Assembly (NCBI RefSeq): GCF_900102215.1 | Contig: NZ_FNBG01000003.1 | Location: 206,397 to 246,396 of the forward strand | Direction of reading: 5' to 3' | From: Fontibacillus panacisegetis | GTDB taxonomy: Bacteria; Bacillota; Bacilli; Paenibacillales; Paenibacillaceae | Length of the DNA: 40,000 nt | Part shown: positions 540 through 18,295 of the stretch, one piece after another | Position numbering within the stretch: position 1 is the stretch's first letter | How the letters are laid out: every line of letters begins with the position of its first letter | The notes under the pieces: generated by a model | What the model was told of the DNA's origin: nothing | Seen by the model: the letters and a program-made list of their open reading frames with translations, nothing else | The model's database searches: none | Translations under genes and position numbers: made by a program

Positions 540-1393
540 GGCAGCGCCCACGGCACTTTGCCCGCGCAGCGGGAAAGTGTCATAGTGGGTTACATACTTT
601 GAAAAAGTATGTAAGTTGCCGTCCCGACCTCAATGCGCCTTTAACGATAGCATAGCATAGCATAAAAACGCGGCCACTTCCACAAAAATAATACAAGCCT
701 CTCTGCGGGTAAGCCCAACCGCCGAGGGGCTTTTTATGGTTTAAGTTCGCTGACGAGTACCACAGAGTAGCGGAGTACATTGAAGTCAATACCCCTGCGG
801 CGGCAATCTGACCGCCGCAATACCAAAGGCAGTTTGTTTTCCTAATATATAAGGCCCATAGTATCCCTCCGCCCAAAATTTTCGATTGCCATACTTATAC
901 TTCAAATTCGCATGCTTCTCGAATATCATCAGTGCGCTTTTTCCCTTCAGATATCCCATAAATGAGGATACTGAGATTTTTGGAGGAATTGCTACTAACA
1001 TATGTACATGATCTGGCATCATGTGACCTTCTAATATCTCCACTCCCTTGTATTTACATAAACGTTTGACGATTTCGATCAAGTCTTTCCTCACTTGATT
1101 ATAGATCTCTTTCCGTCTATACTTCGGGGTGAATACAATGTGGTATTTGCACATCCACTTGGTGTGCGCTAAACTGTAGTTCTTGTTTGCCATCTAAGAC
1201 CATTCCTTTCAACCCCGCCTGAACATCTCAATTCTATCGGCTTGGTCTTAGTGGTCAAACCCTTGATCCCTCCACCCGCATCAGGTGGTTTTTTGTTTCG
1301 CACGCTTCGCGAGCTCAACTGGCTTAAGCCATAATAAGAGGAAGCTAGTCGCTTCCCCTCTAAGTTATCAGAAGAGTTAAAGTGCTTTTCCAT
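540..1393 (-). mobile_element. IS200/IS605-family element remnant (boundaries approximate)
   Basis: Contains the tnpA ORF flanked by structured non-coding DNA. There is a perfect 11-bp hairpin TTACATACTTT-N3-AAAGTATGTAA (588-612). GC-rich hairpins occur at CCCGC-GCA-GCGGG (about 562-576) and TGCGGCGG-N8-CCGCCGCA (about 796-819). An (ATAGC)x3 microrepeat lies at 647-661. Exact ends were not determined. Confidence 0.45.
786..1193 (-). CDS. tnpA: IS200/IS605 Y1 (HUH) transposase TnpA, aberrant C-terminus (probably inactive)
   Basis: MANKNYSLAHTKWMCKYHIVFTPKYRRK...PDHVHMLVAIPPKISVSSFMGYLKGKSA...NRKFWAEGYY shows the HUH motif (HVHML) and the conserved IS200 core. Similarity ends after GYYGPYILGKQTA. 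The usual C-terminal helix carrying the catalytic Tyr (YI..Q) is replaced by FGIAAVRLPPQGY*, which is encoded by a GC-rich hairpin. Confidence 0.85.
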   Translation of the reverse strand: MANKNYSLAHTKWMCKYHIVFTPKYRRKEIYNQVRKDLIEIVKRLCKYKGVEILEGHMMPDHVHMLVAIPPKISVSSFMGYLKGKSALMIFEKHANLKYKYGNRKFWAEGYYGPYILGKQTAFGIAAVRLPPQGY

Positions 1394-1394
1394 G

Positions 1395-2030
1395 TTATTG
1401 CTTAAGCTTCTCCATTACAGCATCAACCCATTCCTGATCGTCCCATAATTTAGGGTTATCAAGCTTTCTTTCACTCGGATGACCTGTTGCTATCGTATCT
1501 ACACCATCTTTGTTGCCAAAATACAAATCTACTATTTTTAATGACTTGTTGACAGACTGAACCAACAGCTTGCAGCTCATCCCGGACCCCTCTTTGGTAA
1601 AAGTTATATGCAAATAGTAAAGATTATCATCAAGCTTGTTGATCTCAACTTCCTTAAACTTATTCTCCATGCCGAAAATAACCCCAATGCCGCCCTTCAA
1701 TTCCTGTTGTTGTTCTAATGCCAACATTTTATTGGTGAACGTAAGTAAATTTTCGTTCGCTATGTAATTTTCAAATGATACCGTTTGCTGCTCTGCAACC
1801 GCCCCGGTATACAGATTGACGAAAGATTGTCCGAAGTCCTCCATGGAAGCGTAATCACTTTTACCAATCTGATCCCCTTGGATTGAAAATTGTAAATTAG
1901 ACAGACCAATTAATAATTCTTCTGCTGATGTTGCTGGAGTCAGAATATAATCTTCTGTATTAGTAGATTGTGAGCAGCCCGCTAGAGCCAAAAATACCAA
2001 AATTATAATACCTAATGTAGATTTCTTCAT
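1395..2030 (-). CDS. Putative lipoprotein, function unknown
   Basis: ATG at 2030 is preceded by GGGAGG. The N-terminus MKKSTLGIIILVFLALAGCSQ is a signal peptide with lipobox L-A-G-C. The track start at 2042 (GTG) overlaps the RBS. Confidence 0.75.
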   Translation of the reverse strand: MKKSTLGIIILVFLALAGCSQSTNTEDYILTPATSAEELLIGLSNLQFSIQGDQIGKSDYASMEDFGQSFVNLYTGAVAEQQTVSFENYIANENLLTFTNKMLALEQQQELKGGIGVIFGMENKFKEVEINKLDDNLYYLHITFTKEGSGMSCKLLVQSVNKSLKIVDLYFGNKDGVDTIATGHPSERKLDNPKLWDDQEWVDAVMEKLKQ

Positions 2031-2080
2031 AGTACCTCCCACACAAACTTATTGACTGTCCCATCCAATAATTAATTAAC

Positions 2081-3007
2081 TCACTCTAAAAATCTCTTAC
2101 TTCTTTTTATTAAACATTCCGAATTCTTGAATCTCCACAATTCGATCTTCTTTCGTTGGGTTTCGTCAACCACTATCAAGTCGAAGTTCTGACTCGCTAT
2201 TGCAGTATCTATATCCTTTGCAGCGAATATATTCCATCCATTTTTTCTACTCAGTATCTCATGTCCTTCTGATAACATTCCACAATGAAAAATGGCAACA
2301 TTCCATCCATTTTCTATGTAATATTTAGCAATGTCATAAGCCAAGAGTGATTTGCCCGTACCTGGTTTCCCTTCAATCGCAACAAACGGTAATTTATTTT
2401 GATTAATAATCTTGATGATTTCATCCCTAACGGTTAGTTGGTTACCGTTGAGAAAGTAATTTCCACCAATAAATTTCGCCGTCGAGTTAAGTGGGGAAAC
2501 AAGATATTCACTTGGCTTGAATAGTGCATCTATCTCAGTTATGACTTTTGGCTTTTGAGTTTTGATGACATTAACCAAGTCGTCTATAGTAGACTTTATG
2601 AGATTTTCAGAATCATCTAATCTATAAAACTCATTCGTCTTTGCAATATATGAGAATGATTTCACTTCATAACCTAATGCGCGTAAGTAGTATTTGTTTT
2701 GAGATAGTTGCTTTTGAACCCGATTTGGTTGGCTGTTGTTTTTCACTTCAATGTTAAGCGTGAAGTTAGTCCCAAACCGCAAGAGATCAAACTCTTTGGA
2801 AATCTGGGGGATGGTGTAGCCCATATAGAATTCGCTCATTTGAACAGTTCGAATATCACAATCAAGAATTTCCAAAATCATGTCTTGAACATCAATGCAT
2901 TCTTGTTTCTTAACCGTAATTCCAAAATAGTTAAGGTATCTGTTAAATTGATCTTCTTTTAATGACTTGTATGCGTCAGCATATGAGCTTAGGCTTATGG
3001 CTTTCAT
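2081..3007 (-). CDS. DUF2075/Schlafen-group-3-like protein (PD-(D/E)xK-like N-domain plus P-loop), C-terminally truncated
   Basis: The N-domain pattern YTIPQISKEFDLLRFGTNFTLNIEVK (D...E-x-K) is typical of DUF2075 proteins. Walker A is EGKPGTGKS and Walker B is LIVVDETQR. The ORF ends about 25 aa after Walker B, whereas family members continue for several hundred residues. Confidence 0.6.
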   Translation of the reverse strand: MKAISLSSYADAYKSLKEDQFNRYLNYFGITVKKQECIDVQDMILEILDCDIRTVQMSEFYMGYTIPQISKEFDLLRFGTNFTLNIEVKNNSQPNRVQKQLSQNKYYLRALGYEVKSFSYIAKTNEFYRLDDSENLIKSTIDDLVNVIKTQKPKVITEIDALFKPSEYLVSPLNSTAKFIGGNYFLNGNQLTVRDEIIKIINQNKLPFVAIEGKPGTGKSLLAYDIAKYYIENGWNVAIFHCGMLSEGHEILSRKNGWNIFAAKDIDTAIASQNFDLIVVDETQRKKIELWRFKNSECLIKRSKRFLE

Positions 3008-3872: not shown

Positions 3873-5633
3873 TCAACCAAGCATGAACTTTCCAAGACCT
3901 ATCTCTATTTTTTCCTGTGACTCTTCACCACTGATCATTTCCATAAAATTCAATCCCTCTAGTACCTTGTCTTTTCGATTAACAATAAAATTAAAAAGAA
4001 ATCTTTTTTCATGAGTATTACTTAATTGTATTTCGAATGTGTAAAACATTTCTCTTGCAACAATAAAACTGTAATCATTGACGGCTTGTTCAGACTCAAA
4101 ATCGCGAATCATATCGCTAATATCATCAACTACTTCTTCCATAGTCTTCTCATAAAGTAAAAATTCTCGGAACATATTTAAAACATTAATTCCTCTATCA
4201 CAAATAATAAATCTATACTCACTACAATTTTTATTGATGAGTTCTCCAAATTTTGCACCTATGTCCATAGCCACATCTCTACTTATTAAACTTCTAGATA
4301 CAAAATAAGTAATCATTTCATTAGCAACTTGGAGATCCTCCATATTTTGATAGATAAACAGCTTTTTCTTTATTTCAAAAATTACATTCTCAACTGATCG
4401 TTTTGCTCTGATAAGTTCATGAACACCTAAATTAGATGCATATCTGTTTTCTAATTTATTAATCCAGGCTTGTTTAATTACCGCTTCTACTTCCTCTCCA
4501 TTTTTTAATGCAGATATCATTGATTTTGCTGTATACTTATTGCCGTAAAAATCATTCACAAATATTTCTTTGTTTGCATTAACAGATATCAATTCTTGTA
4601 TTGCAGTGGTAAAAATAGAAAAATTGTATCCCTCTGAAAAATCAATTTTCTTGACATTTTCAAACCACCCTAGTAGGGTCTCAACGTATTTAAATGCAAA
4701 TTTTAGATTTTTCACATCAACCGCATCTAATAACGTTTTTCCTGTCATCATTTTTTTTATTATGTCAATATCGCTATCTTCAATAGGTCCCTTAATACAA
4801 ATCTTTTTAAGTATTTCGGGTATTTTTTCACTTGTTACTACAAACTTTTCTTCATATTTTTTAAAAATCTCACTGTACTGTTTTGTTGGTGGATCATCCA
4901 AAGATATTTTATAATTAATATTTACACGATCTGCATCATTACAGAGTACTTCATGAGACAAAAGTATATTATAAAATATTTCAAAAGCGGACTCTTTGTA
5001 AGGAAGTTTTAGACTTTTATTTGGGAGCCTACTTAACACTCTGGTTTCTAGAAAGACTCTTATTCTCTCTAATTCCTTCAATGCAGTAGCGGGATCACAC
5101 AATGCCCTATCAGTCATAACATAATCAAATAACTTTGTGACTATTTGATCCCAGTATGAATTTAAGTGCTCAAAATAGACTTGTTTTGATTTTTGGATAT
5201 CCTCTGCAAGTTCTATTGCAATATTTTTTTTCATCATTGTAGTAATACTACCATAAGCACTTTTAGACGTTATATCTGTTTTTATATTATCTAATCTAGG
5301 TTTATTTAATATATCTATTATCCTAACCCTGGTTTTATTGTATAATTTACTCTTCGATTTACTGATTCCTCTCTTCTCTATATTATATAAGTATTTCAAA
5401 AATTTCAGACGACTATATTTATCCGTAAATTCTTCAATATGAAAATACAACAATTTTTCTAATTTATTAATGATTCCACTTTGATCAGAATTCTTAAACT
5501 TATTTCTTATTGCTTCTACAGAATTTGATTCCATGTTTTCAGTTTCATTCTCATCTGCTATTTCTTGACACAGTTCGTTCATCGTTAGCAAACATTTTGT
5601 TTTTTCGTTTTGCCCCAAATTATATTTTGGCAT
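3873..5633 (-). CDS. Hypothetical protein, 586 aa, very AT-rich, predicted all-helical
   Basis: Start reassigned to ATG 5633 (MPKYNLGQNE...), which is preceded by GGTGGAAGG. The track start at 5729 lacks an RBS. The protein is Lys/Glu/Ile/Asn-rich with no catalytic motif I can recognise. The gene is monocistronic with its own terminator. Confidence 0.7.
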   Translation of the reverse strand: MPKYNLGQNEKTKCLLTMNELCQEIADENETENMESNSVEAIRNKFKNSDQSGIINKLEKLLYFHIEEFTDKYSRLKFLKYLYNIEKRGISKSKSKLYNKTRVRIIDILNKPRLDNIKTDITSKSAYGSITTMMKKNIAIELAEDIQKSKQVYFEHLNSYWDQIVTKLFDYVMTDRALCDPATALKELERIRVFLETRVLSRLPNKSLKLPYKESAFEIFYNILLSHEVLCNDADRVNINYKISLDDPPTKQYSEIFKKYEEKFVVTSEKIPEILKKICIKGPIEDSDIDIIKKMMTGKTLLDAVDVKNLKFAFKYVETLLGWFENVKKIDFSEGYNFSIFTTAIQELISVNANKEIFVNDFYGNKYTAKSMISALKNGEEVEAVIKQAWINKLENRYASNLGVHELIRAKRSVENVIFEIKKKLFIYQNMEDLQVANEMITYFVSRSLISRDVAMDIGAKFGELINKNCSEYRFIICDRGINVLNMFREFLLYEKTMEEVVDDISDMIRDFESEQAVNDYSFIVAREMFYTFEIQLSNTHEKRFLFNFIVNRKDKVLEGLNFMEMISGEESQEKIEIGLGKFMLG

Positions 5634-6069
5634 AACCTTCCACCATTCTTTCAAGTTAATTTTATGCTCCTTTTGAAGATGTAACCCTTTAAAACAAAAA
5701 AGTGATATAAAGTAAAAAATGACCACCACAGTTATATCTTGTAGTAGCCATCATAGAATAAAATATTTAAATCCTGCAGAACAACTCAACAGATTGTTCA
5801 GCCTTTTGTTGACTTCGATAATACCCGGACAAACGATCAAAAGGAATATAGTTACCGTTTGAATAGGTTGTAATTGCCGCACGGCCAATATAAAAACCAG
5901 CATTTGAACGCATCACTTAATACTCAGTAATTTCTAGGACCTCTTTGTACTCGATTCCATCAATTCTCATCTTCATACATCCTATTGATTCAATTTTGTA
6001 CAAACTTCAGAAAATACTGCCATTATTTTCGTAAAACTAAAAGCTTGGAATTCATTCATTCTCTTTACT

Positions 6070-8361
6070 CTATTTAATTTTAGGCATTAAAGCTTTAGTT
6101 TCTCCTAATGCTGTAAGTCCACTATAAGCGGATAATACTTCATCTTTCCAAGACCATCTATTTGAACCAATTTTATTCTGCTTCAAATAGTCTCCACCAC
6201 TAATCAAGCACACTACATGTTGGGCACGAGTAACAGCTACATAAAAAATACGGGCTTCTTCCTCCAAATGATTTTGATTATATTTTCCAATCCATTCCTG
6301 ATAACGAGATGACATTCCCTTTTCTCCTTGAAGGCATACATCCAATCCCCAATTATCTTCATCAATGTCAAAAAACTCGGGCATCTGTTTATCATTTAAC
6401 AAAGGTCTCTCGATATTTGGAATAATAACTATAGGATATTCTAAGCCTTTTGCCGAATGAACCGTTGAAAATCTTACTGCATTTTTCACTTGTTGGTTTT
6501 CTTCGTCCACCTCAGCATCATCCATTGCTAACTCTGTCAAGAATGCATTTTGGAACCGTTCTAAGAACTGCTGCATCGTCAAGGCTTCAGCATTCATCTG
6601 TTCTCTTGACCACATCACGAGTTTCTCAAGATTTGCCACGGCTTGAGCATTCCCTCTTGATTTATAATATTCTCTAATTTTTGTAAATTCATATAAACGA
6701 ATCAACAATTGCGGAACAAGTTCAATCTTAATACGTTTTCTGAATTCCTTTATTCCTTTATACCAATCCAAACATTCAGGGGTTCCCTCAAACCAATCGC
6801 ATAAAGGAGTTACTGAGTCAGTTTGGCGATAAATATGAACCGGAGCTTTAAACGGTAAAAATGGTGTCTCTAATGCAAGGTCTAAAGAAACATCATCACG
6901 ATACTTCATCATTGCTTGCAGCATATAATAGCAATTTATTATCTCATTTCTTTGGAAAAAACCTCCGCTAACATCTGTTACAACTGGAATATCTGACTTA
7001 AGTTCTTTGAATTGCTGCTCATAATTAAGCATCTGATCATTCGAACGAAAAAGAACGCAAATGTCTTTGTATTGTACATTACAAAGACCCTTTCCATGCA
7101 TATCTATCTCTTGACTTTGAAACATTTTTATTCGCTTTATTAATTCCTCCACCAATTCATTTTTATTACGACTGTAAACATGATAATACTGAAATGGAAC
7201 CATACTATCCTGTGGTACATGTGCTTCATTTGGGGTAACTAGTACATCTTTCATCACACTATATCGTTCCCCCATACTGTCAAATAGCGCTGATTGAGCC
7301 TCGTTTAACGGCTTTGTTGGGCGACGCGAAGCATTTAATGACAACATAGTCACACCATTTTCCTCAGCCATCTGTTTGATAATTGAATCATCTGCGCCGC
7401 GGAACCCATAAATAGCCTGTTTACGATCTCCTACAACTAAGACATGTCTTAGTTCTTGAATTAATTGATCAATTATTGTTTTTTGTAAGCGATCTGTGTC
7501 TTGAAATTCATCCACAAAGAGGTATTGGAATCTGCGCCCTAAAAGGGGGGCAATAGTACTTCCATTTTGCTGCATCATAGTTGCAGTCTTGTGAAGTAAA
7601 TCATTGGAATCAACCCCGCCTAAAGACTCTTTAATACTCTTATATCTCTTGTCTAAATTATTCAAAAAGGCAGCAACCGCCACACGATATTCTTTCCCAT
7701 CATCATTTGGTTGATTTACTGTTTCATTGTAGAGATCTTCAATTTTCCTACCATTTCCACGTACCCGTTCATACCATTCTTCTAATTTTGAACGCATTTC
7801 ATGTATAGCCCAAGGTATTTTATTAGATTGAAACAAGATTGACATCTCTGCATTTTCTAAAGCATAGTTCATTGTATCATCTAAAGCTCCAAGAAAGTGT
7901 CTGCGGGCAATCAAAACCTCTGTTTCGTGCGGTACGTATTCCTGGTAACCAAATGTTTTAAGCATCATGGAACAGAAACCATGAATAGTTCCAATAAAAG
8001 TAGATGACAATCTTTCTTTCTGTGCGAACCAAAATTTACGCTCTTGTTCGTTATCCTCTAGTTCAGACTTCCTTAACAGATTTTCAACACCTTCTTCAAG
8101 GCGTTGGCGCATCTCATCAGTGGCTTTATTAGTAAACGTGATGAGGGCGAAATCATCTATAGAAGTTTCACTTCGAAAAGTATCTACCAGATGTAATACA
8201 GTAGCTACCATCACCCGCGTTTTACCGGAACCCGCTCCGGCAGAAACAACTGTTATCTTATCAGAACCAATTACTCGATCAACTATAAGTAGTTGCTCTT
8301 CTGAAAGTTCGATTCCTCCACGTTTATTGTTTTCAACTGTAATAGAAATTCCTCCACTCAT
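6070..8361 (-). CDS. UvrD/PcrA/AddA-like SF1 helicase (763 aa, no C-terminal nuclease domain)
   Basis: Start ATG 8361 (MSGGISITV...) follows GGAGGAGGGG. SF1 motifs seen: SAGAGSGKT (I), FTNKATDEMRQRL (Ia), LFVDEFQDTD (II), VVGDRKQAIYGFRGAD (III), LNASRRPTKPL (IV), TVHSAKGLEYPIVII and YVAVTRAQ (VI). Its start lies 1 nt from the stop of the upstream gene. Confidence 0.9.
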   Translation of the reverse strand: MSGGISITVENNKRGGIELSEEQLLIVDRVIGSDKITVVSAGAGSGKTRVMVATVLHLVDTFRSETSIDDFALITFTNKATDEMRQRLEEGVENLLRKSELEDNEQERKFWFAQKERLSSTFIGTIHGFCSMMLKTFGYQEYVPHETEVLIARRHFLGALDDTMNYALENAEMSILFQSNKIPWAIHEMRSKLEEWYERVRGNGRKIEDLYNETVNQPNDDGKEYRVAVAAFLNNLDKRYKSIKESLGGVDSNDLLHKTATMMQQNGSTIAPLLGRRFQYLFVDEFQDTDRLQKTIIDQLIQELRHVLVVGDRKQAIYGFRGADDSIIKQMAEENGVTMLSLNASRRPTKPLNEAQSALFDSMGERYSVMKDVLVTPNEAHVPQDSMVPFQYYHVYSRNKNELVEELIKRIKMFQSQEIDMHGKGLCNVQYKDICVLFRSNDQMLNYEQQFKELKSDIPVVTDVSGGFFQRNEIINCYYMLQAMMKYRDDVSLDLALETPFLPFKAPVHIYRQTDSVTPLCDWFEGTPECLDWYKGIKEFRKRIKIELVPQLLIRLYEFTKIREYYKSRGNAQAVANLEKLVMWSREQMNAEALTMQQFLERFQNAFLTELAMDDAEVDEENQQVKNAVRFSTVHSAKGLEYPIVIIPNIERPLLNDKQMPEFFDIDEDNWGLDVCLQGEKGMSSRYQEWIGKYNQNHLEEEARIFYVAVTRAQHVVCLISGGDYLKQNKIGSNRWSWKDEVLSAYSGLTALGETKALMPKIK

Positions 8362-8362
8362 C

Positions 8363-11233
8363 TTATTCCCCTCCTCCAATTCCCAAACATTCCATACGAA
8401 CTGGACAAGTAGTACAATGTTTACCAGCATGTTTTGGAAACTTATTTTCCTCTATAGAAACTATCCAGTTTGCTAATTGTTCTTCCGATGAATCTTTGTG
8501 CGAAAGTGTTTTTCTCGTGTAATCAGTGTCTTTATATTGAAATTTTTCGATTACATGGGATTGAATAGTTAACCTCCACCAAGAAACAGCATCAAATAAT
8601 GTTTCAAATACTTCTACACCATCAATATCTTTCATCATAATTGATTGGGCACGGGTTTCATCTTGTTTTTTTGTAGCACTTAGAAGCCATTCATGACTAA
8701 GTTCATAATCTAATAACGGAATAGTTAGGATTCCAGAATTCAAATAGTTAGGCACATTGAAAGAAATAATTTTGTTATCATCACTAGGAAGTGTGACATC
8801 AAATTCTTCATTCTCCCCATCAATTATTCTTACTGGATACAGTCCACGCTTACTTGCATGAAATTGAAGTTGGTCTTCAACTTGACGTTCAACGGCTACC
8901 CATGTCTTAGAATCAAAAGTTGGGAACAACTCTGTTACTTGATCCTTAACACACTTTTTGGCTTCCAAAAGAAAGCGAAACAATCCATCTATCTTCTCAT
9001 CTTCTGATCTTAGGACCCTCGGATTTGGCCATTCACCTGTATATTGAGCTAAATTTGTATAAATTTTATCTAACCAAATTCCTTTTGCAACAATATTAAG
9101 TTGCCATTCAGTGCGGTAAACCATAGCCTCTGGATGCAGTAGTTCTAAACGATATCGTAGGGGACATAACCCATAATGGGCAAGCTCATTTAACTCATAC
9201 CTTTTTCTCCGTGCAGGAGGCGGAGGTGGAAAGACTGGTGGGACTTTGGCGAGTGAGATATCTAATTGATCAAAAATACTGCTAACTTCAGTAGGCTTAT
9301 TCATTAGCCTTTCAATTTCGCCAAGATAAACACTTTTTTGAAATGCACGTTCCCCATCCTTGCTAGAGTATGATAACCAAAGCTTTTCACTTGCAGAACG
9401 AATTACGGTTAAGAACATATAACGTTCTTTCATCATATGATTCTCTCGATTGTCCTCATAAAAAGGCCATGATTCAGAGTACAATACTGGAGAGTGCTGA
9501 CTGTCAACAGCTACATACAAAACTGCTGGCTTGTTAATTCCATCCAATGTTTCTGGAGTTACAATGCTTAAACGGTGATCTTCTTTACCATGATCGTCGT
9601 TATCGTTGTTGTTATCCTCGTCTTCCTCCTCCTGCTCAGTAGTACCCCGAGTCAGAGCGTGAATTGCCTCTCCAAATTCACTCGATGTGATATCTATAGA
9701 ATAATAACTCCCAAGTTCTTCGAAAACCTGTTGAATTTGTTCTAGAACTTCTTGTTCTTCACGACGCAGCCGTTTTGGTAATAATTTTTTCATTTCGGCT
9801 TGCAATAATTCAATATGAGATGCAATTGTTTTTTGCCCTCTAACAAACAACCGAACACATGCACTTTCTAGAAGTGAAACAACTTCCTTCCACCTTGCTA
9901 ATGTATGATGATCAAGTTCAAGTAAATGTAAAGGTAATCTTTTATATTGTGTTTTATGTTTCAGAATAAGTCGTTCCAAAACCGAATTCCACTGTTCCTG
10001 AGTTTCACAATCACTAAAATACTGATGTTTTACAGAGCGAAACAACGATGCTGAATCTTGCAACCGCGGCCCAAGCCAACCTGAAGCCAGAATTGTCTCC
10101 AGTTCGTCCATTGTCAACTTTAAATTTCCATTTTCCCATATACGGTACAAAGTCAATACAAAACGACCAACTGGTGTGAGTAACAACAAACGAGGTTGAA
10201 TAGACAATGTAACCGGAATTGGTTCCGAAGAACTGTCCGAATAAAATAATAGTGGGTTCATCGCTAAGTGATCTCTAAAACGATCAATAAATTCTTTAGA
10301 TCTTCTCATAACAATCACTACATCATCAGGTTTGTACGTTTTGTCTGCGAACCAAACTTGCAGTTGGTCGATACAAGCCAACATTTCCCTATCACGATTT
10401 GGATATTTTTTTATGATAATATTTGAAGTATCCCCTGCGTAGTTCACTGTATTATCAGAAAATAGATTTGATTGCAAAAAGTTTAAGTCTTCTTTTTTAC
10501 TATTGGGATCGGTCTCCAGAACTTTATTTGTAATATTCGGAACAGAACTGTAGGTGTTGCTTATTATTTCAAATCCTTTAGGTTGATTAGGATTTAAGGG
10601 AACGACAAAATATAGTTGGATTTTTTTATTCAAACAAGTTTGAACAAAAAGCTTCTGCAGTTCAGTAAAAAATGTAAATCCTTCCATTATCACAACTGAT
10701 TCTGGAGCAAATCCATTAAGCAGAAACTTCCTAGCAGCAGTTTCAAATAGCTCTCGATTTTTTGCTTTCATTTCATTATGAAATGAATTATGTATTGCAA
10801 TCAAATACCTACCCAATTCTGGATTCACAAGACAATCTAATTTTTCCTGCGGAAGAGAAGTGTATCGCAAGTCAATACCCTGAGTTGCTAAATCATAAAA
10901 AACACGCAAAAAAGAATTCGTGTCCTTATGAAATAAATCATGTAGCAATATATCGTCAGCAGCTACTTCTTTTAAAGCTCTTTTTAGAAAGGTCTTTTCC
11001 TCTCCACGTGTAGCAAACTTAACACCTTTTTCTTTCAGAACTCCTTTAAGAAAATCATTAAACAAGGCACACTTTTTATCCTCCCATATTTGAGTCCTAG
11101 GAATTAGCTCCTTACGTTCACGAGCCAATGCTTTTGTTGCAGTGACATATAAATAGGATTTACCCATAATCATCTCTTGTTTAATTAATGCATCAGATGG
11201 TCGAGAATTCTCATACGTACATAAGTAAGGCAT
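8363..11233 (-). CDS. AddB/RecB-family (PD-(D/E)xK plus 4Fe-4S) nuclease-fold protein with inactivated helicase-like N-region
   Basis: ATG 11233 is preceded by AGGAGGG. The Cys arrangement C(PLRYRLE)...C-TT-C-PVRME-C at the C-terminus equals the AddB/Cas4 Fe-S ligand pattern C-Xn-C-X2-C-X5-C. The N-terminal Walker A is degenerate (QEMIMGKS). A GF.FFTELQ-type AddB motif is present. An acidic low-complexity insert EQEEEDEDNNNDNDDHGKEDH lies at about 9580-9645. Confidence 0.75.
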   Translation of the reverse strand: MPYLCTYENSRPSDALIKQEMIMGKSYLYVTATKALARERKELIPRTQIWEDKKCALFNDFLKGVLKEKGVKFATRGEEKTFLKRALKEVAADDILLHDLFHKDTNSFLRVFYDLATQGIDLRYTSLPQEKLDCLVNPELGRYLIAIHNSFHNEMKAKNRELFETAARKFLLNGFAPESVVIMEGFTFFTELQKLFVQTCLNKKIQLYFVVPLNPNQPKGFEIISNTYSSVPNITNKVLETDPNSKKEDLNFLQSNLFSDNTVNYAGDTSNIIIKKYPNRDREMLACIDQLQVWFADKTYKPDDVVIVMRRSKEFIDRFRDHLAMNPLLFYSDSSSEPIPVTLSIQPRLLLLTPVGRFVLTLYRIWENGNLKLTMDELETILASGWLGPRLQDSASLFRSVKHQYFSDCETQEQWNSVLERLILKHKTQYKRLPLHLLELDHHTLARWKEVVSLLESACVRLFVRGQKTIASHIELLQAEMKKLLPKRLRREEQEVLEQIQQVFEELGSYYSIDITSSEFGEAIHALTRGTTEQEEEDEDNNNDNDDHGKEDHRLSIVTPETLDGINKPAVLYVAVDSQHSPVLYSESWPFYEDNRENHMMKERYMFLTVIRSASEKLWLSYSSKDGERAFQKSVYLGEIERLMNKPTEVSSIFDQLDISLAKVPPVFPPPPPARRKRYELNELAHYGLCPLRYRLELLHPEAMVYRTEWQLNIVAKGIWLDKIYTNLAQYTGEWPNPRVLRSEDEKIDGLFRFLLEAKKCVKDQVTELFPTFDSKTWVAVERQVEDQLQFHASKRGLYPVRIIDGENEEFDVTLPSDDNKIISFNVPNYLNSGILTIPLLDYELSHEWLLSATKKQDETRAQSIMMKDIDGVEVFETLFDAVSWWRLTIQSHVIEKFQYKDTDYTRKTLSHKDSSEEQLANWIVSIEENKFPKHAGKHCTTCPVRMECLGIGGGE

Positions 11234-11350: not shown

Positions 11351-11383
11351 GAAAAAAAAGAACACTCCCAATAGGAATGTTCT
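11351..11383 (-). terminator. Rho-independent terminator after queE
   Basis: Minus strand: AGAACATTCC-TATTG-GGAGTGTTCT (one A/C mismatch) followed by TTTTTTTT, 12 nt after the queE stop. Confidence 0.7.
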
Positions 11384-11394
11384 TTATCTTCACT

Positions 11395-12141
11395 TCAAAC
11401 CCCACGCTTATTACCCCACAACAAAGTGTGTAACTGCGGGAGAACTTTAACTTGTCTCAAATCTGAGGAAGCCATGACTTGATTAATCAACCATTCATAC
11501 TTCTCTAATAGTGCAAATGCCAATCCTTCTCTATCTAATGTCGTTACATCGCTATTACCTACCTGCAAAACCAACCTTATGTGAGGATATCGTTTATGAG
11601 CTTGTACTGCATACTGAAGATCATCTTCATCAAAAACGACTACTTTAATACATATTTCATTTGAACTATTTTTCAAGTTCTCCATAACCTCGTCTAATTT
11701 TTCCCAATCAGTTATCATTCCTGAACTTGGTGGTTTCGGGGAAATCGTCAAGTCATCAATATCTGCCATCCACTCTTGCCATCTGCTTCCTTGTGTCTCC
11801 AACCCAACTCGAATTCCTTGGTCATGAAGCAGATTCACTAAGTATCCAATATTCTTTAAGAGTGCTGGATTACCGCCAGAGATGGTTACATGCTCAAAAG
11901 TGTTTCCACCAAGAATTTTCAATTCATCCCAAATCATTTGGGCAGATAATTGTTTAATTTCATTCTTTGCAGAACCGTCCCATGTAAAGGAAGAATCACA
12001 CCATGAACAGGAATAGTCACAGCCAGCTGTTCGAACAAACATTGTTTTTTGTCCAATCACCAAACCTTCTCCCTGAACAGTTGGACCGAATATTTCCAGC
12101 ACCGGGATGGGCTTTTCCTTAGAAGTCAATCTGCCATCCAC
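11395..12141 (-). CDS. queE: 7-carboxy-7-deazaguanine synthase (radical SAM)
   Basis: LEIFGPTVQGEG...FVRTAGCDYSCSWCDS (CX3CX2C cluster) and ~245 aa match a Bacillus-type QueE. It overlaps the queD stop by 16 nt. Confidence 0.92.
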   Translation of the reverse strand: MDGRLTSKEKPIPVLEIFGPTVQGEGLVIGQKTMFVRTAGCDYSCSWCDSSFTWDGSAKNEIKQLSAQMIWDELKILGGNTFEHVTISGGNPALLKNIGYLVNLLHDQGIRVGLETQGSRWQEWMADIDDLTISPKPPSSGMITDWEKLDEVMENLKNSSNEICIKVVVFDEDDLQYAVQAHKRYPHIRLVLQVGNSDVTTLDREGLAFALLEKYEWLINQVMASSDLRQVKVLPQLHTLLWGNKRGV

Positions 12142-12617
12142 TCCCGTCTTGCTTCGGCATAGCTGGTTGGTGTTTCGAATAACCGGACAAATTCAGTTCT
12201 TGCATCCACGTCTTTTGATGAGTATTTATCAGTACTTAGCGCTGTTTCCATCTGCTCATAAAGCCAAACGACCATGTTTTCAGCAGTCGTATTCATTAAC
12301 GGCAACGTCTCATTTAGATATCTGTGGTCTAAGTATGGCTCTATTTGCTCACGCCAAATTGTTTTTATCATTCCAAAATCTATCGTCATGCCAATTTCAT
12401 TTGTATATCCACTTACTCCAAAAACAACTTTATAGGTGTGACCATGTAGATTTTTACATTTACCCTCATATGCATGCAAGTGATGCGCCGCGTCAAAAGT
12501 AAATTCTTTACTGACTAATACTCTGCGCTGATGATATTTCAACTGTTCTTGAGTAATATCCTCTTTAAACTTTTGCAATGCATCTACAATGACGAATTGC
12601 CCTGGCATTTTGTTCAT
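12126..12617 (-). CDS. queD: 6-carboxy-5,6,7,8-tetrahydropterin synthase
   Basis: [26 protein letters not shown] shows the QueD/PTPS Cys-X3-His-Gly-His signature. Confidence 0.92.
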
Positions 12618-13297
12618 AACATCTGCTCCGGATTTCTTCCTTGCAAAAATCTATCCAAACCAGCTTTTCTCAACTGGCAAGCAGGACAAGTACCACATCC
12701 ATCACCGATAATACCGTTGTAGCAAGTTAAAGTCTTTTGGCGTACAAATTCAAACGCCCCTAATTGATCTGCCATTTCCCACGTCTCTGCTTTATCAATC
12801 CACATTAACGGAGTATGAATGATAAAATTATGATCCATCGCTAAATTTAACGTCACATTTAGGGACTTGATGAAATCATCCCGGCAGTCAGGATATCCAC
12901 TAAAATCTGTCTCGCAGACGCCTGTTACAATATGTCTAGCATCTACTCCTTTAGCAAATACTGCGGCGAAACTTAAAAACAAATGATTACGTCCTTCCAC
13001 AAATGTGCTGGGAAGTTCACCATCATTATGAACAATTTGGAGGTCATTACGTGTCAGAGCATTCTGAGTTAGTTGACCGAGCAAGCTCATATCAAGTAAC
13101 GTCCACTTTACTCCAAGTTCATCGGCGATTTTTTTAGCACATTCAATTTCTAAAGCGTGCCTTTGTCCATAATTAAAGGTGATTGCTTCAACTTCGTCAA
13201 AGTGCTTCATTGCCCAAAACAAACAAGTTGTACTATCTTGACCGCCACTAAAAACTACAACGGCTTTTCTGTTTTTTTGTTCCATAATCTTACCCAC
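12614..13297 (-). CDS. queC: 7-cyano-7-deazaguanine (preQ0) synthase
   Basis: [15 protein letters not shown] is the PP-loop. The C-terminal Zn cysteines are CYNG...[11 protein letters not shown]. There is a 4-nt ATGA overlap with queD. ATG 13285 is an alternative start. Confidence 0.93.
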
Positions 13298-13351: not shown

Positions 13352-16300
13352 CTATTTATCGTTGCCCACAACTAATCTAATCTCTACAACTTCAAACAAA
13401 TTAGGAAACTTCTCTTTAATCTCTTCTAACAGACGTTTACCTTGGACTGGTGGGAGGGTACTATAACCATTCTCAATGAGTAATCTAATATGTCTTTTTA
13501 TAGAAGGCCTGATTTGAGAATTGTGATTTATTCTTTCGAGTAGTTGATAAATATTCCCAACGTCTTCATAATCAAGATCATTCCGAATTACTTCAAGAAG
13601 GTTTATTTTGATCTGCTCAAGTTGAAGTTTTCTTTCAACCAGTTCTCTTAATTCATAAAAGTCTATTGATTGCCACTCATCAATTACGGAATTGAGTTCA
13701 GATTCAATCTGTGAACCCTCCATTAAGAGCTCAACACATGCAATCATTTTTAATTTAAGTTCCTTAATTGGCTTTAGAATTTCTAATTGGACTTGAAGAT
13801 TTAACAAATACTTAACTAAAGTGCGCGGAGTTAAAGCAAGACAGTTTTTTAGATTTGATACCTGCTGCACATTAGTTAGAATTTTTCTTTTCTTCTTCTC
13901 TAATTCAGACAAAGAGAACTTACCATCATCAACAATTTCTACTCCCACTTCTTCATAAGTCGCTTGCATACCACACTCAATAAGAAAATCAACTACTTCC
14001 ATTAAAGCCTGGTCAAATTGCTTTGATAATTGATCAACTTCATTGTTTAAAGCAAATAACCTATTAAATTGAATGACTAACTCTGGTTGTTCTAATTGTT
14101 GTTCCAGCAGCGTATAATTCACAAGGTCTTGTTGTCGAAGAAATATCTTTTCGTTAAAAGTACAAATTTGGTCTGCAAGTTTAATCCATTCTGATTTACA
14201 AGAACCCATTAGAAATGGAATCATCGTTAGTCTTTTTTCAATTGATTGCCTAAAGCTTTGATGAAGCAGTTCAAGATAACCACTATAGCTTTCTTTTAAG
14301 TTTGATAAGAATTCCTTCAAGGTTAGACTACCTATTGTAAAGCTTTCTAACGTTTTAGAAGGTACAAGACTTAATAACCATAGATCAAATTCTTCATTCG
14401 CTAATACATCATCATCTGGAGTCTCATAAAAATTTTCACGTAACAAATACCAATCTGAATAACATTCATCAAGCAATGACATTAATTCTTTGTTGAAGGG
14501 AGATTTTCCTTTCGCATCGGAAGTCCATGAGGATTCGCTATATATTCTGGCTTGTTGCGCCCAATTCCTCATTCCGTGCACAAATACAGGTAGCTTCAAC
14601 CCAAGAGCTAGCTCGAGAGATTCAAACCATATTTTACGAACATTTTCTGCCTGATATATCCATTTGGAGGTTTCATATTCATTCGAGATTTTTTGAAATG
14701 TATTTAATTTTTCTGAATACTTCATCGTTTGAAAGTTGGTAATTTGAATGCCAACGTAGCTACGATTTACATTTATAGAGAACTCGTCATTTTTGTCTAG
14801 TTTAATAGGATATCGTGTTCGATTAACAACTTCATTCCATTGAATAACTGAGGAGGTTCGAGATGTGAATGAGCGGTTCATATGTACCCCCTTTATAACA
14901 TCATGTACCAGAGCAGCAACTCCAGATCTAACAGGTAATAATAGTTCATCGTTTACTTCTTTTCCTTCTACCCAATCTCTGACTACCTCTTTTTCATTGA
15001 AGACAGCATTATTTTCATTTTTATACTCTATTTGAAGCGGTAGTTCTTCCCTTGTATTACCTGCTGCTATCTTGTTTAACTTAATAGATATTTGATTTTC
15101 GCTATAACCAAAGTGCTTTAACAGGGGTTCAGAAATTATCATTTGAATTGCATCCTCAGACGCATACCATTCAGATAGTGTTTTAATAAACATATCTTCA
15201 TGCTCCGCAAACATTTCCCTGCGTATAAGTGGAATAACTCTACTAACATGCTTTTTACCTTTTAGAAAGAAGCGTAAGATTTCCTTGCTATTCAGTATCA
15301 TGTAACGTAATTTACCTTTTCCTATAGGAATAGCATCGTATGTGCGTCTTAGCATGTGACTATTAAATGGGAGCAACTGAACTCCAAGATAATTTAAATT
15401 ACTATCCTTGTCGCTTTCCTCTGGCAGGATACCAGAACATTGTTTGTAGTGCGGACATTTAAGAGAGCAGTTGAATCCCTGCGTCGCTTTCAGTTGGGTA
15501 AGATAATTTGCTATATATGGTACTACTTGCTTACGATCAAGATTGAAAAAGTCTTTCCCAGACTCATCCGATAGCCATAGCTTTTTTACACGATCATTAA
15601 TAGTATCAAGATTCTGTATTCTTTGTGTGAGACTAAACCCCTTCTCTGTATCCTGAACTGCACCAGGTGTCAAACCAATGACCACATCCCAGCTCCCTTC
15701 TTCTAATGTAATAAGTTGATCAAGGATACTGGTTGCGTAAATATTAACTGATTGAACTAAATCATCAATCAACAACAAAGGACGGATTCCTCTGCTTTTT
15801 ATCTGCAAAGACATTTGTTTAAAAAGGGTTCCGATATCTTGTCCCTCGAAAAGAAAATGGTCCAACTGCCGCGAGAGATTTTGTCGAAATGCTGCGTATT
15901 CTAATGGAATATGAAGGGTTGTATTGGCGAGTAAAGTTTCAAACTGTTCCCGATGCATCACCTCTAGTGGATTTTTAATTTTTCCTCGTTTAACTTGTGA
16001 TGTAAAATCAATAATATTTTGCTCAATCACCGGCCTTAACAATAGTGCTGTTGGAACGATCTCCTCATCGGACTCCATAGCTTCCGCTAATGTTGTCCAA
16101 ACCATTTGGTTAACAAGGGTTATGGGCTTTTTAAGCAAAATCCCCCACCTGTCTTCATCAATACAAACATCTAGGGATAAATTCAGTGTTTCTAAACATT
16201 TTTTGATCAGGGTCTGAGGATTTAGTTCTGTTCGTGAGATTCGTATCACGGGTCTATCTGATACTTCCGCTACCCACTTATCTTTTAACCAACGAAGCAG

Positions 16301-16552
16301 TTCGGATTTCCCCGATCCTGTCGAACCGAATACTAAATAAACTCTGTTGCCACTAGTATCAGTTTCTTTGAGTTCTCCCAACAATTCATCTTCCGTAACC
16401 TCAGCGATTAACTGACTACCGTTATACCTATGCATTACTTGCGGAAAATGCGTTCTTCTGAAATACTCAGGTGATTGGTCATATCGCTCATCTGCAGTAC
16501 CAGCTAAAAGTTTAAGCGAATTTTTGTTGAGACAAGGAAGCATTAGTATCAC
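13352..16552 (-). CDS. Large P-loop NTPase (1066 aa), family unassigned
   Basis: Walker A is VYLVFGSTGSGKSELL near aa 75-90. A Walker-B-like segment RPLLLIDDLVQS lies near aa 265-276. There is a Cys cluster CSLKCPHYKQC, followed by about 650 aa of helical sequence without motifs I recognise. The start is ambiguous (GTG 16552 or ATG 16543). It overlaps the upstream gene by 32-41 nt. Confidence 0.8.
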   Translation of the reverse strand: MILMLPCLNKNSLKLLAGTADERYDQSPEYFRRTHFPQVMHRYNGSQLIAEVTEDELLGELKETDTSGNRVYLVFGSTGSGKSELLRWLKDKWVAEVSDRPVIRISRTELNPQTLIKKCLETLNLSLDVCIDEDRWGILLKKPITLVNQMVWTTLAEAMESDEEIVPTALLLRPVIEQNIIDFTSQVKRGKIKNPLEVMHREQFETLLANTTLHIPLEYAAFRQNLSRQLDHFLFEGQDIGTLFKQMSLQIKSRGIRPLLLIDDLVQSVNIYATSILDQLITLEEGSWDVVIGLTPGAVQDTEKGFSLTQRIQNLDTINDRVKKLWLSDESGKDFFNLDRKQVVPYIANYLTQLKATQGFNCSLKCPHYKQCSGILPEESDKDSNLNYLGVQLLPFNSHMLRRTYDAIPIGKGKLRYMILNSKEILRFFLKGKKHVSRVIPLIRREMFAEHEDMFIKTLSEWYASEDAIQMIISEPLLKHFGYSENQISIKLNKIAAGNTREELPLQIEYKNENNAVFNEKEVVRDWVEGKEVNDELLLPVRSGVAALVHDVIKGVHMNRSFTSRTSSVIQWNEVVNRTRYPIKLDKNDEFSINVNRSYVGIQITNFQTMKYSEKLNTFQKISNEYETSKWIYQAENVRKIWFESLELALGLKLPVFVHGMRNWAQQARIYSESSWTSDAKGKSPFNKELMSLLDECYSDWYLLRENFYETPDDDVLANEEFDLWLLSLVPSKTLESFTIGSLTLKEFLSNLKESYSGYLELLHQSFRQSIEKRLTMIPFLMGSCKSEWIKLADQICTFNEKIFLRQQDLVNYTLLEQQLEQPELVIQFNRLFALNNEVDQLSKQFDQALMEVVDFLIECGMQATYEEVGVEIVDDGKFSLSELEKKKRKILTNVQQVSNLKNCLALTPRTLVKYLLNLQVQLEILKPIKELKLKMIACVELLMEGSQIESELNSVIDEWQSIDFYELRELVERKLQLEQIKINLLEVIRNDLDYEDVGNIYQLLERINHNSQIRPSIKRHIRLLIENGYSTLPPVQGKRLLEEIKEKFPNLFEVVEIRLVVGNDK

Positions 16553-17288
16553 ATCTCCCCTCTACCTTAATCCAGTTCAATGTATTTTTTGGCCCATAGG
16601 ATTTATATGGAAAATCTTGCACATAACTCAATTCTATTTCCCCTGCCTCAGCTAATCCCATCAATGAAAAAATAATCCCTTTATAAATATTCCCTTCTGA
16701 TGTTAAGCATGGAATAACCGGGTGAATAAATCTTTCACAGAATAGATGTAATCCACCCTCCCATGTCTCGTTTCTTTCAATAATACTTCTCATTAATGAA
16801 AGTTGTGGAAGTGCATAAAAACCTGAGTAGACACGTCTCCCCAATCCCCAACATTCCATCATACGCTTCCATGCATTTACTTTTTCATGACCAACTACTG
16901 TCTTCATTAATTGGCTATTAACTTGGTAATGAATATTACTCACAAATAGTCTATCTGGCTTTACAAAGAACTCTTCAAAAATTGTCGTAAATAAATTATC
17001 AAGTGAATCGCTCGGCATATTATCAGAAGTTGAAATCCCCCTTAATCTCAGAAAAACTTCTTTGTTAGACCATGCTTTATTTTGTGACACATAAAATCGT
17101 GCTTTGTCTTTATATATGAATTGTAAATCTTCTAATACCGTCAAGGCACATTCGATTAAAGAGGTAATGTCACCCTCTTCCCGATACTGGAACTTTGTTT
17201 TTAACCCATTTGCATCCATTCCAGGCTTAGCTCTTAGTTCCTCATAAATTACTTCAATTTCTGGCCCGTAACACATTTGGAACAACAT
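16512..17288 (-). CDS. Hypothetical protein (258 aa), possible N-terminal winged-helix
   Basis: ATG 17288 is preceded by GGAGGGG at 5 nt. It overlaps the 3' end of the 310-aa gene by 35 nt and the 5' end of the NTPase gene. There is no catalytic motif, and the wHTH guess is weak. Confidence 0.65.
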   Translation of the reverse strand: MLFQMCYGPEIEVIYEELRAKPGMDANGLKTKFQYREEGDITSLIECALTVLEDLQFIYKDKARFYVSQNKAWSNKEVFLRLRGISTSDNMPSDSLDNLFTTIFEEFFVKPDRLFVSNIHYQVNSQLMKTVVGHEKVNAWKRMMECWGLGRRVYSGFYALPQLSLMRSIIERNETWEGGLHLFCERFIHPVIPCLTSEGNIYKGIIFSLMGLAEAGEIELSYVQDFPYKSYGPKNTLNWIKVEGRCDTNASLSQQKFA

Positions 17289-18186
17289 GTTCGCCCCTCC
17301 TCTGCTTATTTTCTAAAATATCTTTAAATGTTCTTAATAAGTGATAATAATTGTGGACTGATCTTAACTTCATATATTCTCTCGGGGAGGGAATAAAAAT
17401 CTGTTTTGCATTAATTTCACATACAGGGCATTCACAATGAAGTGGATTTTCCAATCGAGGGCTTGTGGGTTTTGCTCTGGATTCTGATAAAAAAAATGTT
17501 CTAAATGGTCTACTGTAAAATACCTGAAAGAATGCAGCGGCCATTGTTGGTCGAGTTGAATCAAATGACTTTACTCCAATATCAACCATCGCATGAAGTT
17601 GAGGAATCCCTGTTACTCCAAAGACATGAAGGTTGGCAGATCCAACAACATCTACAGCTCTCCTAATCATTTCAATCTGTTCAGTCTGATGCTTAAATAA
17701 CAAGGACCCGATCCCGAAATTTTCATACCCCATCTTAATTAACTCATATGCTGAAAACTCTATACTAGCTTGGTCATAACCTTGGATTACTCCCATTGGT
17801 TGAACAAATTTAGGAAGCTCATACTTATTAAAGAGATTTAAATATTCGTACGCATTAAATAGCGTTCTTTCTATGGCCATGTATCGTTCAGATAAAGAGG
17901 TCTTATTTAATAGGGGTTCATCAAAATGAACCATTTGAATTTTTGCCGTTGAATCGCAATCTTCCAAGATTGATAGTTGAATATCAAAAACATCTTTTAG
18001 TGGTGGCCTACTTTTTTGTTTAACATAAAAAACTGATCCACAATCTAGTATTAACTTTTTAGGTTTGTTTCTATACTTCTTTACTCCTCCTCTATTGTCT
18101 GGAATTGCACTTATTAGCACCGGACACGTAGGGAAGTAGTCACAAAAAATTGCATCACTATGTGACCAACCAATATAAAAATCCAC
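17254..18186 (-). CDS. TGT-family transglycosylase, DpdA-like (310 aa, stand-alone)
   Basis: GTG 18186 is preceded by AAGGAGG at 8 nt. TGT hallmarks: LILDCGSVFY (catalytic-Asp region), GVIQGYD, GIGSLL, HVFGVTG, SFDSTRPT, and the zinc site CECPVC...22 aa...HNYYH (CxCxxC...H). Confidence 0.8.
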   Translation of the reverse strand: MDFYIGWSHSDAIFCDYFPTCPVLISAIPDNRGGVKKYRNKPKKLILDCGSVFYVKQKSRPPLKDVFDIQLSILEDCDSTAKIQMVHFDEPLLNKTSLSERYMAIERTLFNAYEYLNLFNKYELPKFVQPMGVIQGYDQASIEFSAYELIKMGYENFGIGSLLFKHQTEQIEMIRRAVDVVGSANLHVFGVTGIPQLHAMVDIGVKSFDSTRPTMAAAFFQVFYSRPFRTFFLSESRAKPTSPRLENPLHCECPVCEINAKQIFIPSPREYMKLRSVHNYYHLLRTFKDILENKQRRGEHVVPNVLRARN

Positions 18187-18270: not shown

Positions 18271-18295
18271 TAAAAAAAGAAGCCTTCAGGCTTCT
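18271..18295 (-). terminator. Rho-independent terminator overlapping the stop codon of the 262-aa gene
   Basis: Minus strand: AGAAGCC-TGAA-GGCTTCT followed by TTTTTTTATATTTTTT. The TGA stop sits in the loop. Confidence 0.75.

Follow-up and report, generated by a model that had tools for sequence, protein, structure and literature searches.

An AddAB-like gene pair with lost nuclease motifs is linked to 7-deazaguanine DNA-modification islands

AddAB of Bacillus subtilis (AddA and AddB; PDB 3U4Q and 4CEI) is encoded by two adjacent genes; one subunit is a superfamily 1A (SF1A) motor, and the other joins an inactivated helicase fold to a RecB-type fold at its C-terminus and uses a C...CxxCx5C motif to hold a 4Fe-4S cluster. 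AddAB cannot bind broken DNA without this iron-sulfur (Fe-S) cluster, and the helicase-like domain of AddB scans the 3' strand (PMC3321194). Here we describe a gene pair that shares with AddAB the two adjacent genes, the SF1A motor and a second protein with these folds and cluster ligands. It lies in a 40,000-nucleotide stretch of Fontibacillus panacisegetis (contig NZ_FNBG01000003.1, positions 206,397 to 246,396; hereafter the window, in whose numbering all coordinates are given) and encodes a 956-amino-acid (aa) AddB-like protein, called the partner, and a 763-aa UvrD/AddA-like helicase. The pair differs from AddAB in that the partner gene precedes the helicase gene, the helicase has no nuclease domain, and neither Walker A nor nuclease motifs I-III nor the Q..Y motif survive in the partner. 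Both proteins are also shorter, the partner by ~200 aa and the helicase by ~470 aa, and their genes sit in a mobile defence island, unlike addAB, which belongs to the core genome. On balance, we lean towards a reading in which the pair, descended from AddAB, supplies motor and scaffold to a restriction module, alternative or auxiliary, of Dpd, the 7-deazaguanine DNA-modification system.

Other described systems share parts of this picture. RecC, like the partner, joins a dead helicase to a nuclease-like domain that is also dead, and serves as the scaffold beside an SF1A motor. Unlike the pair, RecBCD has a RecC without an Fe-S cluster, a RecB that carries a nuclease, and a second motor, RecD, which has no counterpart here. 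The Dpd operon dpdD-dpdK of Salmonella Montevideo keeps the same company as the pair (dpdA, dpdC and queCDE), and its presumed job is the restriction of DNA that lacks dPreQ0 or dADG. That operon relies on SF2 helicases (DpdE, DpdF and DpdJ) and a PLD nuclease (DpdK), which sets it apart from the pair; the pair is not among dpdA-K, and no PADLOC Dpd model matches the partner. No roles have been assigned to the eight canonical Dpd restriction proteins (PMC10164549). Gabija also places a UvrD-family helicase and a second protein in a defence context, whereas the pair, in contrast to Gabija (the OLD nuclease GajA plus GajB), has no OLD/TOPRIM-ABC partner, has a helicase nearer to AddA and RecB, and is linked to DNA modification. 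Hachiman embodies the idea of a helicase that monitors the integrity of DNA and governs a nuclease; it differs in that HamB is an SF2 protein, HamA is an active nuclease, and neither an Fe-S cluster nor modification genes are involved. The pair was not described in the literature that we searched on Dpd and deazaguanine systems (dpdA-K, BRIGADE, BRC and islands without the restriction operon), nor did a search joining deazaguanine or dpd with AddB, AddAB, UvrD or NERD return a description of it. A Dpd-type modification-restriction island with an AddAB-derived, nuclease-less module is probably undescribed.

Fold, iron-sulfur ligands and lost motifs of the two proteins

Sequence searches of the partner gave almost nothing, which made a fold comparison necessary. 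The partner has no match in Pfam or in PADLOC (PADLOC 2.0, which has no model for it), and the AddB model TIGR02773 matches it only locally, at 27 bits against a cutoff of 903.7. Searched alone against PDB sequences, it returned a single, spurious GPN GTPase match, and the profile of its family returned RecC at E 0.047 as the sole match related to helicase-nucleases. The partner has relatives in 41 homologous clusters in a set of 5.8 billion, from Brevibacillus, Paenibacillus, Neobacillus, Gorillibacterium, Deinococcus and metagenomes. An AlphaFold (AF2) model built on 38 homologous clusters reached a predicted local distance difference test (pLDDT) score of 85 and a predicted template modelling (pTM) score of 0.66. 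Its top PDB match in Foldseek is AddB (4cei_B, E 1.7e-21, TM(query) 0.56), aligned over the full length in ~1018 columns, followed by RecC (E 3e-16) and then by UvrD, Rep, PcrA and AdnAB. The predicted structure thus confirms an AddB fold for the partner.

Four cysteines of the partner, C690, C940, C943 and C949, are invariant in 38/38 relatives and are spaced C-x249-C-x2-C-x5-C, in line with the AddB Fe-S ligands C801, C1121, C1124 and C1130 (PMC3321194). The first-pass annotation of this DNA, made from the letters alone, had recognised AddB-type Cys ligands, a degenerate Walker A and an acidic, Asn-rich insert in the partner, and the family alignment and model agree with it on all three. At the Walker A position the family consensus is Y-x-V-A-T-[KAGS]-A-L, in which T33 alone is invariant, with neither a GK[ST] nor a Gly-rich loop. 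In the partner, VTATKALA occupies the place of GxxGxGK[ST], and its Lys is not kept in distant members; the ATP site of AddB is formed by K14, T15 and D208 (PMC3321194). The insert is predicted to be disordered (pLDDT <50 at residues 530-550) and varies in length, being short in relatives fused to NERD, a PD-(D/E)xK nuclease domain.

The C-terminal domain has lost the motifs on which catalysis by AddB depends, namely E915, D944, D961-x-K963, Q981 and Y985 (PMC3321194). Across the aligned relatives, residues 672-956 contain no conserved Lys and no conserved Asp or D/ExK motif, and no acidic residue in the beta-sheet core of the domain is conserved across the family. When the domain is scored for catalytic residues by comparison with AddB, none of the AddB nuclease motifs is conserved. 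LLDYELS had earlier been read as motif III with a possible K-to-E change, and it sits about where motif III of AddB is expected. The family has D/G/S at residue 842, D/S/Y at 843 and L/I/V/E at 844. Because these positions vary and no Lys is conserved, LLDYELS does not represent a single K-to-E change; the whole catalytic set is missing. E848, beside LLDYELS, is near-invariant in the first 38 sequences and is replaced in Gram-negative members. Matches to Pfam PDDEXK_1 among relatives mostly span the final 40-65 profile positions, which correspond to the Cys-motif region, and a profile of the C-terminal domain searched against PDB sequences found neither AddB nor Cas4. With no RecB-family catalytic residue conserved, the partner is probably not the nuclease that had been proposed. 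We consider it quite likely, from these patterns of conservation, that the C-terminal domain has no catalytic activity left and persists as a structural or DNA-binding module with an Fe-S staple. Since the ligands are invariant while the nuclease and ATP sites are lost, a structural or DNA-end-binding role of the cluster, independent of catalysis, fits. We found no description of such a state in the AddAB/RecBCD lineage, with both nuclease sites and the AddB ATP site gone and the Fe-S ligands invariant.

The first-pass annotation had proposed that the pair degrades unmodified DNA by itself, which would make the AddB-like domain an active non-canonical nuclease and the pair a self-sufficient helicase-nuclease. 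This we regard as improbable, given that no acidic position is invariant, that no Lys is conserved, that PDDEXK_1 mostly matches the Cys-motif end of its profile, and that a separate NERD nuclease has been recruited repeatedly (see below). What speaks for it is the modelled RecB-family nuclease fold with an Fe-S staple, the frequency of acidic residues at 842/843, 848 and 869/871, and the lack of any other candidate nuclease in the islands of the window and of loci L028, L003, L013, L007 and L018. A residual active site at the hairpin of residues 867-876 or at E848, kept only in the absence of NERD, was considered and rejected: loci in which NERD is encoded separately have the hairpin too, and have lost E848.

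The helicase, as annotated earlier, has all SF1 motifs and no nuclease domain, which the motif scan and Pfam both bear out. Motifs I, Ia, II, III, IV, V and VI read AGAGSGKT, TFTNKA, VDEFQD, GDRKQAIYGFRGA, LNASRR, VHSAKGLE and VAVTRAQ, respectively. The Pfam domains UvrD-helicase (E 2.5e-50) and UvrD_C (E 6.7e-31) span residues 34-720 of 763; Pfam detects no PDDEXK domain (PF12705) and nothing after UvrD_C. Of the NCBIfam models, addA_Gpos leads with 198 bits, followed by recB with 176 bits and then by PcrA and UvrD, all far under their equivalog cutoffs (for AddA, TIGR02785, 197.6 bits against 707.65). PADLOC GajB models match at 139 bits, a weaker and generic UvrD similarity. Orthologues form a separate set of ~90 clusters in the 5.8-billion-cluster search, 727-807 aa long and without PF12705, and the closest relatives outside this clade are AddA-type helicase-nucleases of 1060-1290 aa that carry PF12705 (E 1e-50 and weaker). 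By this sequence comparison, the helicase is an AddA-like motor from a clade without a nuclease.

The same scores bear on whether the pair might be a housekeeping AddAB for double-strand-break repair, which the first-pass annotation had already doubted. AddB is the best structural match of the partner, and AddA and RecB are the best models for the helicase. The NCBIfam scores, however, come nowhere near the equivalog cutoffs, neither nuclease site nor the AddB ATP site is left, and the family is rare and patchy (41 clusters in 5.8 billion; 7 loci in 185,579 species representatives, in a pattern-limited scan) and always found in an island context. Its rarity, sub-threshold scores and missing active sites leave the housekeeping role with hardly any probability. 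Bacilli have a canonical addAB.

Coupling of the two genes and linkage to Dpd islands

The two genes are coupled. The first-pass annotation had described them as 1 nt apart and as a unit of their own past the queE terminator, and open reading frames (ORFs), junction and hairpin are all in keeping with that layout. The junction reads GGAGGAGGGGAA-TAA-G-ATG, with the partner stop codon at 8365-8363 and the helicase start at 8361, and the GGAGG ribosome-binding site for the helicase gene sits within the partner gene. An AGGAGG site lies ahead of the partner start ATG at 11233. The terminator after queE, a 13-bp stem followed by a T-run with a folding energy of -20.3 kcal/mol (z = -5.8 against shuffles), parts the pair from the preQ0 genes. 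The 160-nt spacer between the end of queE at 11395 and the partner holds a TGgTAAAAT extended -10-like element, noticed by eye; the scan made no call. The fraction of G and C (GC) is 0.37 in the pair, compared with 0.42 for the 24-40 kb part of the window, and the minus strand carries every gene within the first 22 kb.

At every locus with downstream sequence available, the helicase gene directly follows the partner gene. In P0093 (1738 aa), an AddB-like protein and a UvrD helicase are fused into a single chain in the order of the gene pair. P0085 (1690 aa) is an AddB-like protein with NERD and a Ser/Thr kinase, and P0070 (1456 aa) is one with an SF1B AAA_11/AAA_12 helicase; fusions to NERD, to NERD plus kinase and to the SF1B helicase are all on the partner N-terminus. 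NERD plus kinase is also the N-terminal architecture of the defence proteins PglW and DndF (PMC12839542).

Linkage was examined at 26 independent loci, which were gathered from 185,579 scanned species genomes, from a metagenome scan and by look-ups of exact proteins, and annotated by Pfam or PADLOC together with tblastn using a marker set; the counts below rest on loci from pattern-limited scans. The scan of species representatives, itself pattern-limited, yielded 7 loci. The genomes that bear the pair belong to Bacillota, Massilia and Deinococcus, besides metagenomes. Genes of the dpd or que families lie within the fetched flanks at 23/26 loci, over an identity range of 24-88% and in several phyla, so the pair does co-occur with deazaguanine genes; a test of co-occurrence with the TGT genes had been put forward earlier.

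Three arrangements recur. In pattern (a), Vut_1 comes first, then a DpdC-DpdA fusion and a 262-aa protein, followed by a TGT paralogue, a 258-aa protein and a 1066-aa DpdH-like P-loop protein; the pair comes last, preceded at some loci by queC(DE). It is found in Brevibacillus laterosporus, whose layout is identical and whose island stops after the pair, in Brevibacillus sp. MS2.2, in Paenibacillus sp. ClWae2A and in Paenibacillus FSL H7-0716, where dpdE/F/G/H-like genes come after the pair. Pattern (b) places the pair immediately after dpdH-dpdI-dpdJ-dpdK-dpdD, with loci in Gorillibacterium and Brevibacillus fluminis (both with the full set), in Paenibacillus lacisoli (DpdJ and DpdD in the fetched flank) and on two metagenome contigs. 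In pattern (c), a small NERD gene shares one operon with the partner and helicase genes, and this operon diverges from dpdC-dpdB-dpdA-dpdB-queC-queD; the full pattern is present in Massilia sp. 2TAF26 and two contigs, and other contigs and a Deinococcus plasmid have NERD, separate or fused, with fewer dpd or que genes. On the Deinococcus plasmid, the pair is accompanied by QueC, QueD and Vut_1 genes and a TGT fragment, and at L007 it lies directly after DpdB and TGT. NERD is fused or adjacent at 8/26 loci with its PD...ExK motif intact, and defence activity of NERD proteins has been shown experimentally in another system (bioRxiv 10.1101/2024.01.29.577857). On metagenome contig L019 (10001-13206), the partner ends at residue 807 and the helicase match begins at residue 491; judged from the sequence, the pair there looks fused or inactivated by deletion, though DpdJ, DpdK and DpdD are intact.

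The near-constant linkage is what most disfavours a free-standing defence pair, an option that the first-pass annotation had left standing. Such a pair would resemble Gabija or Hachiman and would merely share islands with Dpd, sensing DNA ends or damage regardless of modification. In its favour, the helicase matches the GajB profiles (139 bits), defence genes do cluster, with Nhi/AbiO-like and IS200 genes nearby in this window, and three loci show no dpd genes in their fetched flanks. Set against this are dpd/que genes at 23/26 loci, usually adjacent, in conserved order and across phyla, the lack of a GajA/OLD partner, and a GajB similarity that is generic, the AddA and RecB models scoring higher. 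With linkage holding over 24-88% identity in several phyla, we think independence of Dpd rather unlikely.

The family extends beyond the pair itself. A profile search of 1.84 billion representatives gave 1,828 proteins at E <= 0.001, of which ~100 are full-length family members. A second tier, P0117-P0179, comprises proteins of ~930-1080 aa (E 1e-92 to 1e-33) with the same C...CxxCx5C pattern and no DxK, and none of them carries an NCBIfam name. These proteins were considered as a bridge to true AddB and rejected as such, having no NCBIfam name and lacking the DxK motif as well. The search thus outlines an unannotated superfamily of ~1,800 proteins at this threshold, in which none of the checked members had a family name. 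A scan of viral contigs found no relatives.

Proposed role on the restriction side of Dpd

Under the reading that we favour, the two proteins would form an AddAB-derived heterodimer in which the 763-aa protein is the single SF1A motor and the 956-aa protein an AddB-like scaffold that keeps the Fe-S staple and, by sequence, has lost ATP binding and nuclease chemistry. The complex would belong to 7-deazaguanine (Dpd) DNA-modification islands, most likely on the restriction side. It may load at ends or breaks of unmodified foreign DNA, unwind it processively and pass the unwound strands to a nuclease outside the pair. That nuclease would be NERD in many relatives, either on the scaffold N-terminus or encoded just upstream, and DpdK (PLD) in others, where the pair stands at the end of dpdH-I-J-K-D. 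An end-loading, single-motor complex that feeds a separate nuclease is suggested by analogy with AddAB, in which the cluster binds ends and the helicase-like domain scans a strand. The restriction side is favoured because a nuclease has been recruited repeatedly, because the pair ends the restriction operon in pattern (b), and because pattern (c), with its two divergent operons, resembles a restriction-modification system in layout.

Several observations weigh against this reading. Neither NERD nor DpdK is found in the window by tblastn, and this island has no recognisable nuclease, yet its arrangement is conserved in at least four species. The gap might be filled by an odd activity of the C-terminal domain, by an unrecognised neighbour or by host nucleases, or it might reflect a modification-side role of the pair; each is possible. 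Regarding the first, Asp at 842 or 843 is common and E848 is kept in most members, and a non-canonical site is conceivable. Loci L014, L023/24 and L025 have no dpd genes in their flanks, which are short or uninformative.

The absence of DpdB from the window is a further point of this kind, and it leads to the alternative that the pair helps modification. The complex would then open DNA for DpdC-DpdA in place of the DpdB ATPase, or clear stalled transglycosylase-DNA intermediates or abasic sites. DpdB, a ParB/DndB-like ATPase, was not detected in the window by Pfam, PADLOC or tblastn with the L007 or L018 DpdB. In Salmonella, this ATPase is required for preQ0 insertion, and the authors raised a helicase-like step (PMC10164549), which likewise counts for a modification helper, as does the location of the pair right after queCDE. 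Three features make us judge this role unlikely. Gram-negative loci with two DpdB copies still have the pair, which shares a divergent operon with a NERD nuclease there; four loci place it at the end of the restriction operon dpdH-I-J-K-D; and the 1066-aa DpdH-like protein beside the TGT paralogue already gives the window another ATPase.

If the pair does act in restriction, a more specific and rather doubtful version would make it an end-scanning machine of the AddAB/RecBCD type in which the 7-deazaguanine mark takes the role of Chi. The AddB-like subunit would use its dead helicase domain to read the unwound strand, and the complex would stop or be disarmed at dPreQ0 or dADG, sparing the cell's own modified DNA ends. 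Linear DNA of phages or plasmids that lacks the mark would be unwound and destroyed by NERD, DpdK or host nucleases. If true, this would amount to a compact restriction module of two or three genes and would explain how a sparse mark, ~1 in 10^3 nucleotides, gives chromosome-wide protection. Irrespective of this version, the set of NERD, AddB-like scaffold and UvrD-like motor recurs beside dpdA/B/C in Gram-negative and Gram-positive genomes and offers a simpler system for study; in several islands, the two- or three-gene module is the sole candidate besides the modification genes.

The island in the window and its neighbouring genes

The features of the window are listed in Table 1. On the DpdC-DpdA fusion, which joins DUF6884 to a DNA-guanine transglycosylase, the NF041059 DpdA model scores 445.5 bits (cutoff 200), and PADLOC calls both DpdA and DpdC. 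A fused DpdC-DpdA without DpdB departs from the dpdA-dpdB-dpdC set of Salmonella. By tblastn, none of DpdD, DpdE, DpdF, DpdG, DpdI, DpdJ and DpdK is present in the window, and the sole trace of dpdD-K is the weak DpdH-like N-terminus of the 1066-aa protein (E 1e-7 to 2e-8). The 262-aa, 258-aa, 1066-aa and TGT-paralogue families, compared with NERD and DpdK by hhalign, gave probabilities of <1%, and searches of PDB sequences with the 618-aa and 1066-aa proteins were empty.

Table 1 Coordinates of the pair, its sequence features and the surrounding genes in the window
Feature	Coordinates	Strand	Remark
AddB-like partner, 956 aa	8363..11233	-	predicted: SF1-helicase-like part at the N-terminus, inactivated; nuclease-like domain at the C-terminus, with an Fe-S staple
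Degenerate Walker A position of partner (YVTATKALA, residues 29-37)	11123..11149	-	
Disordered acidic/Asn-rich insert of partner (EQEEEDEDNNNDNDDHGKEDH, residues 533-553)	9575..9637	-	
C-terminal nuclease-like domain of partner, residues ~672-956	8366..9220	-	catalytic residues not conserved
Cys690, putative Fe-S ligand 1 (GLCPLRY)	9164..9166	-	matches AddB C801
LLDYELS (residues 840-846), earlier taken for motif III	8696..8716	-	not conserved
Cys940, Cys943, Cys949, putative Fe-S ligands 2-4 (HCTTCPVRMEC)	8387..8416	-	match AddB C1121, C1124, C1130
SF1A UvrD/AddA-like helicase, 763 aa, without nuclease domain	6070..8361	-	Pfam and NCBIfam
Helicase Walker A (AGAGSGKT)	8218..8241	-	
Helicase motif II (VDEFQD)	7498..7515	-	
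Intrinsic terminator after queE	11357..11385	-	13-bp stem then T-run; parts pair from preQ0 genes
queC-queD-queE (preQ0 synthesis)	11395..13297	-	Pfam QueC, PTPS, Radical_SAM; immediately upstream of pair
Overlapping genes: TGT-like paralogue, 258-aa protein, 1066-aa DpdH-like P-loop protein	13352..18186	-	
1066-aa DpdH-like P-loop protein	13352..16552	-	
258-aa protein	16512..17288	-	
TGT-like paralogue, 310 aa	17254..18186	-	
262-aa protein	18286..19074	-	
DpdC-DpdA fusion (DUF6884 and DNA-guanine transglycosylase), 683 aa	19132..21183	-	NF041059, PADLOC
Vut_1/YhhQ-like gene	21214..21753	-	preQ0/queuosine-precursor transporter family
DUF6979 gene	21938..22366	+	
618-aa ORF	3873..5729	-	just downstream of helicase
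Nhi/AbiO-like defence gene	2081..3007	-	
Lipoprotein-like ORF	1395..2042	-	unrelated
IS200-type transposase	786..1193	-	

Among the other island genes, the TGT-like paralogue matches DpdA and PDB 7ui4 weakly. Its reading frame overlaps that of the 258-aa protein, which in turn overlaps that of the 1066-aa protein, and the trio recurs with the pair in Bacillota and on the NERD-type metagenome contig L017; it may act as a second transglycosylase or read the mark. The 262-aa protein has just 7 homologous clusters, and some Paenibacillus versions are 79-94% identical, closer than other island proteins are between genera, a sequence pattern that suggests mosaic exchange within the island. Its AlphaFold model, built from 8 sequences, reached pLDDT 44 and is unusable. 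The Vut_1/YhhQ-like gene is open and aligns to relatives from 21753; the codon at that position is ATT behind a GAGGTG ribosome-binding site, and the first canonical start lies 60 codons further in. Either ATT serves here as a rare start, or the start codon is damaged. The DUF6979 gene flanks the island both here and in Brevibacillus sp. MS2.2 (L003), and may be a shared marker of the insertion site or an island member.

Downstream of the helicase, the 618-aa ORF has 29-31% GC and is not conserved in related loci; it has no significant Pfam match (one weak sub-threshold match) and none in PADLOC, NCBIfam or PDB, and is probably unrelated variable cargo. The match of the Nhi/AbiO-like defence gene to its profile is confined to positions 1-276 of 470, and the gene is probably truncated. 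It is followed by the lipoprotein-like ORF and then by the IS200-type transposase gene.

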